Source of the DNA: an uncultured Collinsella sp.
Lineage (GTDB): Bacteria; Actinomycetota; Coriobacteriia; Coriobacteriales; Coriobacteriaceae
Assembly (NCBI GenBank): GCA_902475615.1
Contig: CABSAD010000002.1
Span: 110,287-174,286 of the forward strand
Reading direction: 5' to 3'
DNA length: 64,000 nt
Part shown: piece by piece, positions 56,124 through 60,960 of the stretch
Layout: every line of letters starts with the position of its first letter
Position numbering within the stretch: position 1 is the stretch's first letter
Position numbers and translations under genes: made by a program
Notes under the pieces: generated by a model
The model's input: the letters and a program-made list of their open reading frames with translations, nothing else
What the model was told of the DNA's origin: nothing
The model's database searches: none

Positions 56124-56852
56124 ATGGGTTACATGCTCGAGACGCGCGGGCTCACCAAGCGCTTCGGCCGCGGCGACCAGGCGCAGGACGCCGTGGCCGA
56201 CGTGAGCCTTCATATCCGCGAGGGCGAGGTGTACGGGCTGCTCGGCCCCAACGGCGCCGGCAAGTCGACAACGCTCAAGATGATCTGCGGGATGCTGCGG
56301 CCGACGGCCGGGGAGATCCTCTTTGCCGGGCACGCCTGGCGCCGCGAGGACCTCTACGCAATCGGCAGCCTCATCGAGGAGGCGCCGCTCTACCCCAACC
56401 TCACCGCGCGCGAGAACCTGCGCGTGCGCACCACGCTGCTGGGCCTTCCCGAGAGCCGCGTAGATGAGGTGCTCGCCGCCGTGGGCCTCGCGGACACCGG
56501 GAAGAAGCGCGCCGGTCGCTTCTCGATGGGCATGCGGCAGCGCCTGGGACTCGCGCTGGCACTGATCGCCCGGCCACGCCTGCTCGTGCTCGACGAGCCC
56601 ACCAACGGCCTCGACCCCATCGGCATCGAGGAGCTGCGCGACCAGATCCGCGGCTTCGCGGCGGCTGGTACGACGGTGATCGTCTCGAGCCACATCCTCT
56701 CCGAGGTGCAGCAGATGGCTGACACCATCGGCATCATCTACGGGGGGCGCCTCGCCTACGAGGATGCGCTTCGGTCCGGGCAGGACCTCGAGGAACTCTT
56801 CATGAGCGTCTGCCGGGAGGGGCGTCGAGCGCGCGGGGAGGTGGCGGCATGA
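56124..56852 (+). CDS. lantibiotic-protection ABC transporter ATP-binding protein (LanF-like)
   Basis: Walker A GPNGAGKST, and an E-loop (SLIEEAPLY) in place of the Q-loop, as in LanF/MutF. Signature FSMGMRQRL. About 72% GC. Confidence 0.8.
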   Translation: MGYMLETRGLTKRFGRGDQAQDAVADVSLHIREGEVYGLLGPNGAGKSTTLKMICGMLRPTAGEILFAGHAWRREDLYAIGSLIEEAPLYPNLTARENLRVRTTLLGLPESRVDEVLAAVGLADTGKKRAGRFSMGMRQRLGLALALIARPRLLVLDEPTNGLDPIGIEELRDQIRGFAAAGTTVIVSSHILSEVQQMADTIGIIYGGRLAYEDALRSGQDLEELFMSVCREGRRARGEVAA

Positions 56853-57619
56853 CGGGCGAGAAAGGCGGCCTGCTCGCGTGCCTGCGCGCCGAGGCCCTGA
56901 AGTCGCGCCACGCGGCACCGGTTCGCCTGGCCGTGCTCATGGCGCTGCCGATGCCGCTGCTCGGCGCGATGCCCTACCGGGGCGTGCAGATCTTCAGCGC
57001 GTGGAACTACTGGTACGCGCTCTTCCTGCCCGTGTCTCTCTCGCTCGTGGTGGCGTGCGTCGCGCGGGCGGACGCGCGCACGCGGATGCGGGGACTTCTG
57101 GGCCTGGGCTTCCCGCTTAGGCGCGCCTGGTGGGCCAAGGCGCTCTGGTGCCTCGCGCTCTGCGCGCTCTCGAACCTCGTGGTCTTCGGCATCTACCTCG
57201 CGGGCTCGGCGTTCTCCTCGCAGGGCCTCACGGTCGCGGGCACGCTCACGATGCTCCTCTGCGCGCTCGTCAACACGGTGACCGCGGCGTGGATGATCCC
57301 CGCAGGGCTCTTCCTCACGGCGCGGCTCGGCATGCTCGCGGGCATCTTCTGCCCGCTCGCCGCGCAGCTCGTGGGTGGTTTCGCCTGGTCGCTGGTGCCG
57401 CTGCCGCAGCTCTTTCCGCCGTCGGCGAGCATGGTCATCCCCACGAGCTTCATCCCCGTGCTGCCGAGCGGCGAGCCACTCGCGGCGGACATGGCGCTCG
57501 GCGGGGCGCTCGCGGCGGACGGCATGCTCACACTGGCGGGCCTTGCGGTCTGCGCGCTCGCGTTCGCCGCGCTCACGGCGGCGGGCGCGGCCTGGTTCGC
57601 GCGCTCCGAGGAGAGGTGA
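56849..57619 (+). CDS. lantibiotic immunity ABC transporter permease (LanE-like)
   Basis: 256 aa with 6 TM helices, translationally coupled to lanF. Confidence 0.7.
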   Translation: MTGEKGGLLACLRAEALKSRHAAPVRLAVLMALPMPLLGAMPYRGVQIFSAWNYWYALFLPVSLSLVVACVARADARTRMRGLLGLGFPLRRAWWAKALWCLALCALSNLVVFGIYLAGSAFSSQGLTVAGTLTMLLCALVNTVTAAWMIPAGLFLTARLGMLAGIFCPLAAQLVGGFAWSLVPLPQLFPPSASMVIPTSFIPVLPSGEPLAADMALGGALAADGMLTLAGLAVCALAFAALTAAGAAWFARSEER

Positions 57620-58434
57620 TGGCCATGACACGACTCTCCGACGCGACGCCGCGCATGACTCTCCCGCGGGCCCTGCTCTCCGAGGCCCTGCGCCTGGCGC
57701 GCTCCCCGCTCGCAGCTGTGCACCTCGTCTGCGGCCTGGCAGCCGGTCTTGCCTGCGGCGAGTACTTCTCCATAACCCGATGGGACCCGGCGCTGGGCGC
57801 GGACGCCTACGCCCAGTTCCTCGGCGCCCTCATGCCGCTCATGTCCGCCATCGTCTGCGGGCTCGCCGTGGACGAGGAGCGCGCTGCCGGGCGCCTCGCC
57901 AACCTCACGGCGGTCCCCTCGCGCGGGCGCGCCGTCGCGGCGAAGCTGCTCGCCCTTGCGGCGCTCGGCGCGGGCGCGCTGGCCGTGGCGCTCGGCGTGT
58001 TCGGGGCCGTGCTCGCCGTCGCCGGGCGCCTGCCGCTCGGACCCGCTCCGCTTGCGGCCGCCTGGGCGGGCATCGTGCTGGGCAGCCTGCCCCTCTACGC
58101 GCTGGGGCTCGGCGTGGCCCTGCGCCTCGGCCGCAACGCCGCCATCGGCGCCGGCGCGGCGGGGATGCTCCTCGCGTTCTTCTCAGTGGGCGGACTTGCG
58201 CACGGCCTCATGACCGGCGAGCTCACCGGTGCCCTGGCGACGCCCCTGAGCTGGGTGCCGTTCGCCTGGCCCGCGCGCCTAGGGTCGCTCGGGGTGGAGG
58301 CCTTCATCGACGCCGCACGCGCGGCGGGCCCTCTCCTCACGACTGCGCTCGCTGGCCTCGTGCTCGCCCTAGCAGCCGCCGCCGTCCTTCTGGCCTGGTT
58401 CTGCCGCTTCGAGGACGGGAGGGCAGATGAGTAG
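57619..58434 (+). CDS. lantibiotic immunity ABC transporter permease (LanG-like)
   Basis: About 272 aa with 6 TM helices. The ATGA overlap with the previous gene places the start inside the longer ORF 57130..58434. Confidence 0.65.
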   Translation: MAMTRLSDATPRMTLPRALLSEALRLARSPLAAVHLVCGLAAGLACGEYFSITRWDPALGADAYAQFLGALMPLMSAIVCGLAVDEERAAGRLANLTAVPSRGRAVAAKLLALAALGAGALAVALGVFGAVLAVAGRLPLGPAPLAAAWAGIVLGSLPLYALGLGVALRLGRNAAIGAGAAGMLLAFFSVGGLAHGLMTGELTGALATPLSWVPFAWPARLGSLGVEAFIDAARAAGPLLTTALAGLVLALAAAAVLLAWFCRFEDGRADE

Positions 58435-59536: not shown

Positions 59537-59562
59537 GGATCGGGGCGCGAGGTCGCGGGGGC

Positions 59563-60960
59563 ATGCCGCTCTCCTTCGTCATCGCGCGCTACTTCGCCTA
59601 CGCGTTCGCGGCAGTCGCCACGGCGTGGCTCGCCTCGTTCATGGTGCTCTCCGTGGCGATCAACGCGGGCTTCGTCTACGAGGCAAGCTGGGGGCCGGCC
59701 AATGTGCGCGAGGTCGCGGAGGGCCTGGCACGCGACGGCGTCTGCGGGCAGCAGGACGTGCCGACGGCGTACCGCTACCTCATCCTGAACAAGGACGGAT
59801 ACGTGCTGATGACAGACCTCGAGGGCACGAGGCTCGAGGACGCGACGGAAATGGCCCGTGCGGCACTCGCCGCGGATCCGGGCACAGTGGAGATCGAGGG
59901 CGGGGGCTCGGGCCTCACCTACGCCGCGTTCCCGCTCAAGGGCGGCGGGGCCTGCGCACTCGTCAGCGAGTACCTGCCGCAGTGGGTCTCGCGCGATCTC
60001 GCCGGCCTGCTTCCCAACCCACAGAACCTCATGCTCGTCGGCGCCGCTGCGGGAAGCGCGCTCGCGCTCGCGCTCGTGGCGCGCCGTGCGAGCCGCGTGA
60101 TCTCGCGCAAGATGGCGCCGCTCGCGGAGGCAGCGAGGCGCGTCGGCGCGGGGGATCTCGACTTCGCGGTCGGCAGCACCAACGTGCGCGAGGTGAACGA
60201 CGTCCTCGCCGCGATGGACGCCATGCGGACCTCCCTCGCCGAGTCGCTCGAGGCCCGCTGGGCCGCGGAGCGGGGGCAGCGCGAGCAGGTGGCGTCGCTC
60301 GCCCACGACCTCAAGACGCCGCTCACCGTGCTGCGCGCCAACGCCGACTTCGTGGCGGAGGAGCTGGAAGACGAGAAAGACGCCGACCTCGCGGCCGCCG
60401 CGCGCGACATAGCCGGCGGTGTCGAAAGGCTCGACGGCTACGTGCGCCTGCTCATCGAGGCCTCGCGCGGGTCCGGCGGGGCGGAGAGGGCCCCCATGCG
60501 GCCGGCCGAGCTCTGCGAACAGGTCCTCGCCGAGGCTGCCCAGATCGCCCGGGCGCGAGGCGTGACGCTCGACGCGGCCACGGGCCCCGCTGTCGCGGGC
60601 GCGCCCGAGGCCCCACTCGACCGAACCAGCCTGGCGCGAGCCGTCGCGAACCTCGTGGCCAACGCCGCCGAGCACGCACGCTCGCGCGTGGCTGTCTCCT
60701 GCGACGTCGCGGGCGGGCGCCTCGTCATCGAGGTTGCCGACGACGGACCGGGCTTCTCTCCCGCCGCCCTCGAGCGCGGCTGCGAGCGCCTCTTCACAGA
60801 CGACTCCTCCCGCTCCTCGCGCGACGGAGGCCGCCATTACGGGCTCGGCCTCCATGCCGCCTCCGAGGCCGCGAGCGCCCACGGGGGCTCCGTCTCGCTC
60901 GCCAACGGCCCCTCGGGCGGCGCGGTGGCCACTATCGCGGTCCCCCTGTGCGGGATCTGA
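59563..60960 (+). CDS. sensor histidine kinase (LanK-like)
   Basis: Two TM helices, HisKA (SLAHDLKTPLTVL) and HATPase_c (GLGLHAASEAASAHGG). The ORF opens at 59524. Confidence 0.85.
   Translation: MPLSFVIARYFAYAFAAVATAWLASFMVLSVAINAGFVYEASWGPANVREVAEGLARDGVCGQQDVPTAYRYLILNKDGYVLMTDLEGTRLEDATEMARAALAADPGTVEIEGGGSGLTYAAFPLKGGGACALVSEYLPQWVSRDLAGLLPNPQNLMLVGAAAGSALALALVARRASRVISRKMAPLAEAARRVGAGDLDFAVGSTNVREVNDVLAAMDAMRTSLAESLEARWAAERGQREQVASLAHDLKTPLTVLRANADFVAEELEDEKDADLAAAARDIAGGVERLDGYVRLLIEASRGSGGAERAPMRPAELCEQVLAEAAQIARARGVTLDAATGPAVAGAPEAPLDRTSLARAVANLVANAAEHARSRVAVSCDVAGGRLVIEVADDGPGFSPAALERGCERLFTDDSSRSSRDGGRHYGLGLHAASEAASAHGGSVSLANGPSGGAVATIAVPLCGI

Follow-up and report, generated by a model that had tools for sequence, protein, structure and literature searches.

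In a 64,000-nucleotide stretch of contig CABSAD010000002.1 from an uncultured Collinsella sp., which in its full length we call the window, a sharply bounded GC-rich island carries the six-gene operon lanF-lanE-lanG-yxeA-like-lanR-lanK. Very probably, this is a CprABC/LanFEG-type resistance operon against lantibiotic-class peptides that is foreign to Collinsella and has spread among its members. The six genes all lie on the forward strand, overlap or are tightly spaced, and fill the island (Table 1), and the window flanks (39-54 kb and beyond 62 kb) align with Collinsella genomes at 90-99%. The host is a gut Collinsella, in whose chromosome the operon lies.

The island stands out by its G+C content (GC). 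The core block is ~72.5% GC and the remaining window 0.580; in 2-kb windows over 56001-61000 the GC is 0.717-0.736, with 300-bp windows peaking at 0.79, compared with 0.53-0.60 over most of the window and a few stretches reaching 0.64. A first-pass annotation of this DNA, made from the letters of the sequence, had described an island of about 72% GC lying about 10 points above its flanks. The level is confirmed, but the step is larger than was stated (~14-15 points), and the sliding profile has the form of a sharp island instead of a uniform GC of ~70%. To the right of the island, an intermediate GC of 0.63-0.67 persists to ~61650. All three codon positions differ from those of the host genes; namely, GC at the first position (GC1) is 0.68-0.79 in the module versus 0.53-0.62, and GC at the third (GC3) is 0.89-0.94 versus 0.65-0.85. 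The long open reading frames (ORFs) in antisense and alternative frames have a GC of ~0.87/0.55/0.72 by codon position. This peak at position 1 mirrors the sense-frame GC3, and these ORFs are thus shadows of the real genes, as had been supposed when they were called GC artefacts. The contrast recurs in the 90 related loci that we compared (L001-L090): full-length copies of the block have a GC of 0.72-0.73 (mean overall, 0.722) and the flanks average 0.571. The minimal version of the block in other loci corresponds to 56001-60965.

As to the transporter, the ATPase encoded by lanF scores 330.2 bits on NCBIfam TIGR03740 (lantibiotic protection ATP-binding cassette (ABC) transporter ATP-binding subunit) and thereby passes its curated cut-off (309.75), whereas the second-best family, DrrA, reaches 187.8 bits against a cut-off of 312.45. 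The ATPase therefore clusters apart from generic ABC-2 exporters, in line with its first naming as LanF. In a phmmer alignment to ABCA3, furthermore, the Q-loop Gln of CPQH pairs with E86 of SLIEEA, i.e., with the E-loop that had been read in place of a Q-loop; according to the literature, the E-loop is among the most conserved elements of LanFEG and is essential for immunity. A simple hydropathy scan predicts six hydrophobic segments in each of the permeases (256 and 271 aa), as expected for the two six-transmembrane (six-TM) permeases of the first-pass annotation. The sole NCBIfam match of LanE is TIGR03732 (MutE/EpiE; 86.8 bits, full length, cut-off 145.2) and that of LanG is TIGR03733 (MutG; 81.4 bits, full length, cut-off 117.2). 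Judging from these profiles, the two permeases are divergent members of, and not strangers to, the MutE/MutG families. The ATG of lanG overlaps the stop codon of the upstream lanE. The transporter is not of the BceAB type, since it has two six-TM permeases and no FtsX domain.

Table 1. Features of the island and its borders (positions in the window).
Feature	Position	Strand	Basis
GC-rich core block holding the entire operon	55888..61013	+	common to 90/90 related loci, 96-99% identical, with differing flanks
CGTTA-N6-CGTTA direct repeat (11-bp spacing), putative OmpR-type regulator site	56015..56031	+	invariance across operons
Invariant CACCATGG after the CGTTA repeat	56042..56049	+	invariance across operons (same comparison)
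lanF, ABC ATPase with E-loop	56124..56852	+	TIGR03740 match; E86 in place of the Q-loop Gln
lanE, permease with six TM segments	56849..57619	+	MutE/EpiE match; hydropathy
lanG, permease with six TM segments	57619..58434	+	MutG match; hydropathy
Small membrane-anchored YxeA/DUF1093-family protein (N-terminal TM helix, then small beta-barrel domain), predicted	58427..58828	+	profile and fold
Promoter-like site TGGACC-17-TACAAT upstream of lanR	58818..58846	+	weak; consensus match only
lanR, OmpR/PhoB-type response regulator	58874..59536	+	Response_reg and Trans_reg_C domains
lanK, sensor histidine kinase	59563..60960	+	N-terminal TM, ~113-aa loop, TM, HAMP, HisKA, HATPase
Fragment of a different histidine kinase (DHp/HisKA region only)	61043..61335	-	weak HisKA match; GC ~0.67

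The block is widespread in Collinsella. Within an assembly collection, 1,388 index blocks contain the exact sequence of its ATPase, and a scan of species-representative genomes gave at least 545 confirmed relatives, the best 80 of which are almost all from Collinsella with 98-100% protein identity. In RefSeq, the products in C. aerofaciens are already named "lantibiotic protection ABC transporter ATP-binding protein", "lantibiotic ABC transporter permease", response regulator and HAMP kinase. The block is found in several unrelated chromosomal contexts, and one metagenome-assembled genome holds two copies at different sites that are 99.5% identical. Its junctions are ragged, with at least eight left classes (55851-56001) and at least eight right classes (60965-62254); the right junctions include 61005, 61013, 61101, 61111 and 61167, before or inside the kinase fragment listed in Table 1, and some junctions are secondary deletions at microhomologies. 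Copies of different junction classes are 98.0% identical, as compared with 98.1-98.3% within a class.

Synonymous divergence tells when this spread occurred relative to the host lineages. In the same 20 genomes, the mean number of synonymous substitutions per site (dS) is 0.043 for lanF, 0.030 for lanE and 0.061 for lanR versus 0.22 for gyrA and 0.25 for gyrB, which lie in blocks ~10 kb away; this is a 4-8-fold difference, although the very high GC3 may depress dS of the module somewhat. The module has therefore spread after the Collinsella lineages split. Together with the contrast in GC and GC3 and the many junction classes, the low dS upholds the horizontal acquisition that was proposed at first pass. 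All six genes are under purifying selection among the Collinsella copies, with ratios of non-synonymous to synonymous divergence (dN/dS) of 0.10 for lanF, 0.20 for lanR and 0.26 for lanK (lanR, lanK and lanE fall within 0.20-0.30) and 0.43-0.46 for lanG and the small gene. Indeed, lanF is intact in 90/90 of the loci that cover it, lanE in 77/81, lanG in 65/67 and lanR in 61/63 (at least 95% for each gene); the apparent breaks in lanK are mostly a stop three residues earlier, that is, a 462-aa variant.

A vehicle for this spread is not evident in the DNA. The block ends have no terminal inverted repeats or target duplications, no recombinase is encoded in the block and no tRNA in the window, and no phage carrier was matched. 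A self-mobile element (an insertion sequence or transposon, an integrative element, or plasmid or phage cargo) was thus considered and set aside, given the ragged ends and the absence of a recombinase or carrier. The sole match in the plasmid collection is a 900-kb C. aerofaciens record rich in housekeeping genes. In this RefSeq record (NZ_OY725717.1, "plasmid 6", 899,693 bp; L095), the block lies between housekeeping genes, and coaBC, rpe and the genes for NAD(P)H-dependent glycerol-3-phosphate dehydrogenase and adenine phosphoribosyltransferase surround the module; the record looks more like a chromosome segment than a plasmid.

We also inspected copies that were assigned to other taxa. Contigs named "Bulleidia sp." and "Firmicutes bacterium AF25-13AC" (L026 and L083) have Collinsella-like flanks (94-98%); a transfer between phyla was hence rejected, and these contigs are probably mis-binned. 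Short isolate contigs of Adlercreutzia muris DSM 29508 and Ellagibacter isourolithinifaciens DSM 104140 (L037 and L082) carry the block at 98-99% identity in flanks that match no Collinsella locus examined, which could reflect either transfer or contamination. A recent sweep driven by the industrial use of nisin seems unlikely, because a dS of ~0.04 among the copies implies far more than decades.

With regard to the origin, the next tier of relatives, with 87-88% ATPase identity, comprises Olsenella timonensis, O. profusa, Olsenella sp. An290, Thermophilibacter provencensis and Collinsella intestinalis. Contigs of the Olsenella timonensis type have the same six genes in the same order, with a Fic gene inserted, and all six proteins are collinear with these homologues at 70-88% identity. 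The Olsenella timonensis-type operon is compositionally native, with the same GC as its surroundings (0.716 and 0.69-0.72, respectively); for C. intestinalis, the values are 0.69 in the operon versus 0.63 in the flanks. As far as can be judged from sequence comparison, a high-GC, Atopobiaceae-like lineage of Coriobacteriia (Olsenella/Thermophilibacter-type relatives of ~70% GC) is plausibly the best candidate for the source. The higher-GC actinobacterial donor of the first-pass annotation is accordingly plausible in kind, but the direct donor is not among the sampled relatives, because the nearest ones of native GC are just 70-88% identical in protein.

Downstream of the transporter genes, lanR and lanK have the domains of the OmpR-type regulator and kinase that had been reported there. 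The ORF of lanK opens at 59524, and gene callers in the related loci start it at the ATG equivalent to 59563. The TM segments of LanK (residues 3-41 and 155-173) leave an extracytoplasmic loop of ~113 aa, which fits the 113-117 aa tabulated for the sensing loops of CprK, LcrS and NsrK. Upstream of lanF, the CGTTA repeat and CACCATGG do not vary between the operons of Collinsella, the Olsenella type (L091) and C. intestinalis (L093), amid diverged surroundings, and the repeat is kept in every left-junction class. We regard the repeat as a putative operator, whose 11-bp spacing would suit a dimer of the OmpR family. The promoter-like site upstream of lanR is the sole sigma-70-like match in 55700-61400, where shuffled sequences are expected to give 0.2.

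The kinase fragment is convergent with lanK, lies within the longer versions of the block, and is trimmed elsewhere at nested points (61101, 61111 and 61167). It is not a duplicate of lanK (39% identity over just 36 aa) and is probably a remnant that was brought in together with a once-longer foreign segment.

The fourth gene, in the position of lanI, required a deeper search. Alone, its 133-aa product matches nothing in Pfam, NCBIfam (including PF06486 and TIGR01655) or the PDB. It is not a LanI of the NisI/SpaI type, because the lipobox Cys is absent and no LanI family of Pfam or NCBIfam matches it. A shallow nine-sequence profile gave only chance-level PDB matches plus one DUF1093 match at E=0.32, and a first AlphaFold model, built on an 18-sequence alignment with at least 85% identity, was discarded (pLDDT, the predicted value of the local distance difference test, 48). 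A profile search over 1.84 billion cluster representatives yielded only 80 relatives. The working profile and model were based on a divergent alignment of 21 full-length relatives with 28-53% identity. This alignment has a conserved core; a lipobox (LSGC or LAGC) is present in many relatives, but the Collinsella copy has lost the lipobox cysteine and kept the N-terminal hydrophobic helix. Searched against the PDB, the 21-member profile matches 3NPP (DUF1093, Bacillus subtilis BSU39620) over nearly the whole chain at E=2.4e-8 and 2K5Q at E=1.9e-4. Nine of the 21 members individually match Pfam DUF1093 (PF06486), and scores of 18.7-21.8 bits in the relatives against a cut-off of 29.65 point to a divergent subfamily. 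The AlphaFold (AF2) model from this alignment has a pLDDT of 90.2, and among PDB structures Foldseek again ranks 3NPP first for it (probability 1.00; template-modelling score by target length, 0.69), ahead of other small structures, from Bacillus cereus, of membrane-associated proteins or lipoproteins. From these profile matches, the Pfam matches of family members and the predicted fold, the protein is assigned as a divergent member of YxeA/DUF1093. The small secreted protein of the first-pass annotation is thus indeed small, but is better described as a membrane-anchored homologue of this family. Relatives of ~30% identity are encoded in the same order of MutE, MutG, small protein and regulator.

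The small gene is recurrently lost. It is deleted or truncated in 32 of the 62 copies that cover it, most commonly by an in-frame loss of 213 bp; end-points of the deletions in window positions are 58586|58793, 58582|58792, 58528|58802 and 58510|58780, premature stops occur as well, and the genes beside it remain intact. In the literature, YxeA-family proteins are accessories of BceAB-type peptide detoxification modules. One of them, YsaD, is not required for resistance in Lactococcus lactis and seems to have a modulating role in signalling, in agreement with the recurrent loss in Collinsella; another falls within the LiaR regulon of enterococci. We found no description in the literature of a LanFEG-type transporter paired with a YxeA-like accessory, as is the case here; such accessories are known so far from BceAB-type modules.

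No genes for lantibiotic biosynthesis accompany the operon, as had also been claimed. The LanB, LanC, LanM and LanT families match no ORF of at least 280 aa in the window, a screen that a small lanA-like ORF would escape, though such an ORF would be without modification enzymes; the gene tables that we inspected for related loci contain no biosynthesis genes either. The system is hence an orphan one with its own two-component system.

From the observed gene content, protein families, E-loop, membrane topology, composition, distribution, purifying selection and low dS, we infer the substrate, the induction, the function of the operator, and the direction and vehicle of transfer as follows. By analogy with the characterised family, the kinase would sense the peptide via its ~113-aa extracytoplasmic loop and phosphorylate the OmpR-type regulator, which would bind CGTTA-N6-CGTTA upstream of lanF and raise transcription. 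A LanF2-LanE-LanG complex, in which the E-loop would couple ATP hydrolysis to the permeases, would then drive the peptide out of the membrane ahead of any sequestration of lipid II or pore formation. The membrane-anchored YxeA/DUF1093-like protein would be a non-essential accessory and may modulate signalling or bind the peptide. The block would have arisen in a lineage of Coriobacteriia with ~70% GC or more and spread among Collinsella after their divergence. Because the block is without mobility genes, the most likely vehicle would be recombination of incoming DNA, followed by secondary rearrangements.

Could the same transporter serve another substrate, "lantibiotic" being no more than a family name? 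Host defensins, LL-37, bacitracin-like peptides or other membrane-active compounds in the gut would be candidates, given that family membership does not fix the substrate, that both permeases score under the MutE/MutG cut-offs, that the human peptides HNP-1 and LL-37 were likewise countered in vitro by the lanFEG(I)RK systems published from the gut (PMC10793476), and that YxeA-family accessories are known in BceAB-type modules responding to bacitracin, Lcn972 or LL-37-type peptides. Nonetheless, the ATPase passes a curated lantibiotic-protection model and has the E-loop characteristic of LanFEG, and all characterised members of the CprABC group act on lantibiotics according to the literature; a non-lantibiotic substrate is thus improbable, yet it is the most serious of the alternatives. 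Much less credence can be given to a decayed producer cluster, in which the immunity and regulatory genes would have been left behind after loss of the biosynthesis genes and not acquired as a stand-alone cassette. Producer clusters ordinarily include LanFEG and LanRK, Cpr-type operons are believed to share an evolutionary link with producer strains, and a kinase fragment adjoins the block; however, the same six-gene unit without biosynthesis genes recurs in the related loci of Collinsella, in the operon of the Olsenella type and in that of C. intestinalis, and also around family members of ~30% identity, so that the stand-alone unit is old and conserved. The block edges, moreover, fall within ~240 bp upstream of lanF and ~50 bp past lanK.

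It is also conceivable that the block is native to Collinsella and owes its composition, without any transfer, to Ala/Gly/Leu-rich membrane proteins and a local bias in mutation or selection. Three of the six proteins are indeed membrane proteins rich in Ala, Gly and Leu, many species representatives of Collinsella carry the block, and GC is raised to 0.64 in another stretch of the window (33-36 kb). This explanation is the least probable of all and is already contradicted by the data: GC3 reaches 0.90 in the kinase and is also high (0.89-0.91) in two soluble proteins, the ATPase and the regulator, dS is 4-8 times below that of gyrA/gyrB in the same genomes, and copies at different sites are no more diverged than those at the same site. 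Unrelated chromosomal sites and ragged junctions likewise speak against it.

Several points nevertheless weigh against a foreign lantibiotic-resistance operon that has spread in Collinsella. Besides the possible depression of dS by high GC3, both permeases miss the curated MutE/MutG cut-offs, and the tie between module and substrate would come from family membership. Induction by the peptide is an assumption, whereas the published gut systems are reported to be constitutive and not lantibiotic-induced (PMC10793476). The protein identities of 70-88% leave the nearest native-GC relatives short of a direct donor, and neither terminal repeats, target duplications, a recombinase, a tRNA nor a plasmid or phage carrier was found to account for the movement. 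A search for the empty site via the exact GyrI-like neighbour gave only the arrangement of the window itself. The spread in Collinsella also differs from the published picture of co-evolution with the hosts (PMC10793476).

Among known systems, the Collinsella operon most resembles the CprABC-type group, which includes CprABC-CprK/R of Clostridioides difficile and LcrSR-LctFEG and NsrFE1E2G-XRK of Streptococcus mutans. Shared features are one ATPase with two different six-TM ABC-2 permeases, an OmpR-type regulator, a kinase loop of ~113-117 aa and the lack of biosynthesis genes. Unlike that group, however, the Collinsella operon has both regulator and kinase directly downstream in one operon and a YxeA/DUF1093-like gene between lanG and lanR, and its host belongs to Coriobacteriia (high-GC Actinomycetota) and not to Firmicutes; the Collinsella module is known from its sequence alone. 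In human gut commensals, lanFEG(I)RK systems were described in a preprint from the Pamer laboratory (PMC10793476), in which they raise the minimum inhibitory concentrations of nisin and blauticin, are widespread in gut bacteria, especially Bacillota, and rarely have lanA/B/C alongside. The gene order F-E-G-(small gene)-R-K is identical to ours, and the gene in the lanI position is there, too, occasionally lost or a pseudogene. The preprint concludes that those systems co-evolve with their hosts, and its main text makes no mention of Collinsella. In contrast, the block in Collinsella forms a sharp GC island, its dS is 4-8 times under that of core genes, and its small gene is YxeA/DUF1093-like with no LanI family match in Pfam or NCBIfam.

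The immunity transporters of producers (NisFEG, SpaFEG, EpiFEG, MutFEG and NukFEG) share with the operon the families TIGR03740, TIGR03732 and TIGR03733 and the E-loop, and presumably also the F2EG stoichiometry and the expulsion mechanism. Those transporters sit in biosynthetic clusters and work with a LanI lipoprotein or LanH, whereas the Collinsella module is stand-alone. In BceAB-type modules (YxdJK-YxdLM-YxeA of B. subtilis and YsaDCB/TCS-G of L. lactis), similarly, a small DUF1093/YxeA protein is co-transcribed with an ABC transporter for peptide antibiotics and with a two-component system; it is secreted or anchored there and dispensable for resistance. BceB is, however, a single 10-TM permease of the FtsX type with an extracellular domain of ~200-250 aa, in place of which the present module has two six-TM permeases, LanE and LanG.

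The type of system is thus already known and RefSeq-annotated, lanFEG(I)RK in gut commensals has been published, and a metagenomic study had already noted that Collinsella encodes KEGG Orthology terms (KOs) for bacitracin/lantibiotic transport. What the operon adds is of some evolutionary interest: its island is sharp, it spread after speciation with no mobility genes in sight, and its accessory gene has been lost repeatedly. Its contrast in composition and its low dS offer a clean case, found in nature, of an operon for resistance to peptide antibiotics passing from one commensal lineage to another. More tentatively, and with considerable doubt, the LanFEG plus YxeA/DUF1093-like cassette might represent a distinct resistance lineage of Coriobacteriia that has swept through many Collinsella, and perhaps Adlercreutzia and Ellagibacter, without mobility genes, the YxeA-like protein being a new kind of accessory in the LanI position; if so, this would contradict the published view of gut lantibiotic resistance systems as long-term co-evolving residents. 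Collinsella is a prevalent genus of the human gut, in which the cassette is very common. If functional, the operon would render Collinsella tolerant to dietary nisin and to lantibiotics of gut Blautia/Ruminococcus or oral streptococci, and would have a bearing on the reshaping of the microbiota by lantibiotic-based therapeutics or food preservatives.

Some neighbouring features were also recorded. Two azaaromatic (yjdF) riboswitch aptamers (Rfam RF01764) are located at 54465-54567 and 62909-63008 (56.9 and 48.4 bits; gathering score, 45), both inside ~240-bp direct repeats (54333-54603 and 62800-63044; 84-91% identical) that bracket an 8.4-kb variable region. The first aptamer is followed by a complete DUF2992/YjdF gene (to 55008) and the second by just ~14 codons of yjdF (MVVYIKEEPAMQIS); an insertion or duplication at the yjdF leader may have left this repeat pair as its footprint. 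Immediately to the left of the island, a 149-aa ORF (55217-55666, reverse strand) weakly matches a TenpIN type III toxin (NF047358; E=8.9e-8, 32.5 bits against a cut-off of 90), with no tandem-repeat antitoxin RNA upstream of it. It is preceded by a 64-aa ORF (55767-55961, reverse strand), the first 24 codons of which are common to HsdS-fragment contexts in other loci.

Farther away, the one large unassigned ORF of the window (1,071 aa; 36814-40029, forward strand) has a signal-peptide-like N-terminus, no LanM/LanC domains and no Pfam or NCBIfam family. A 373-aa ORF that likewise belongs to no Pfam or NCBIfam family (40060-41181, forward strand) adjoins it, and the pair lies in a region of mildly raised GC (0.61-0.64 at 33-36 kb and 38-41 kb), beside a LuxR-type regulator (35306-36655). 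Finally, a 1,087-aa fusion of an ABC ATPase and an FtsX permease (24219-27482, reverse strand) is best matched as MacB-like, with matches also to bacteriocin-export ATPase families, and a histidine kinase (30531-31670, forward strand) is located a few kb from it; the fusion may be a second peptide/antibiotic efflux module in the window.

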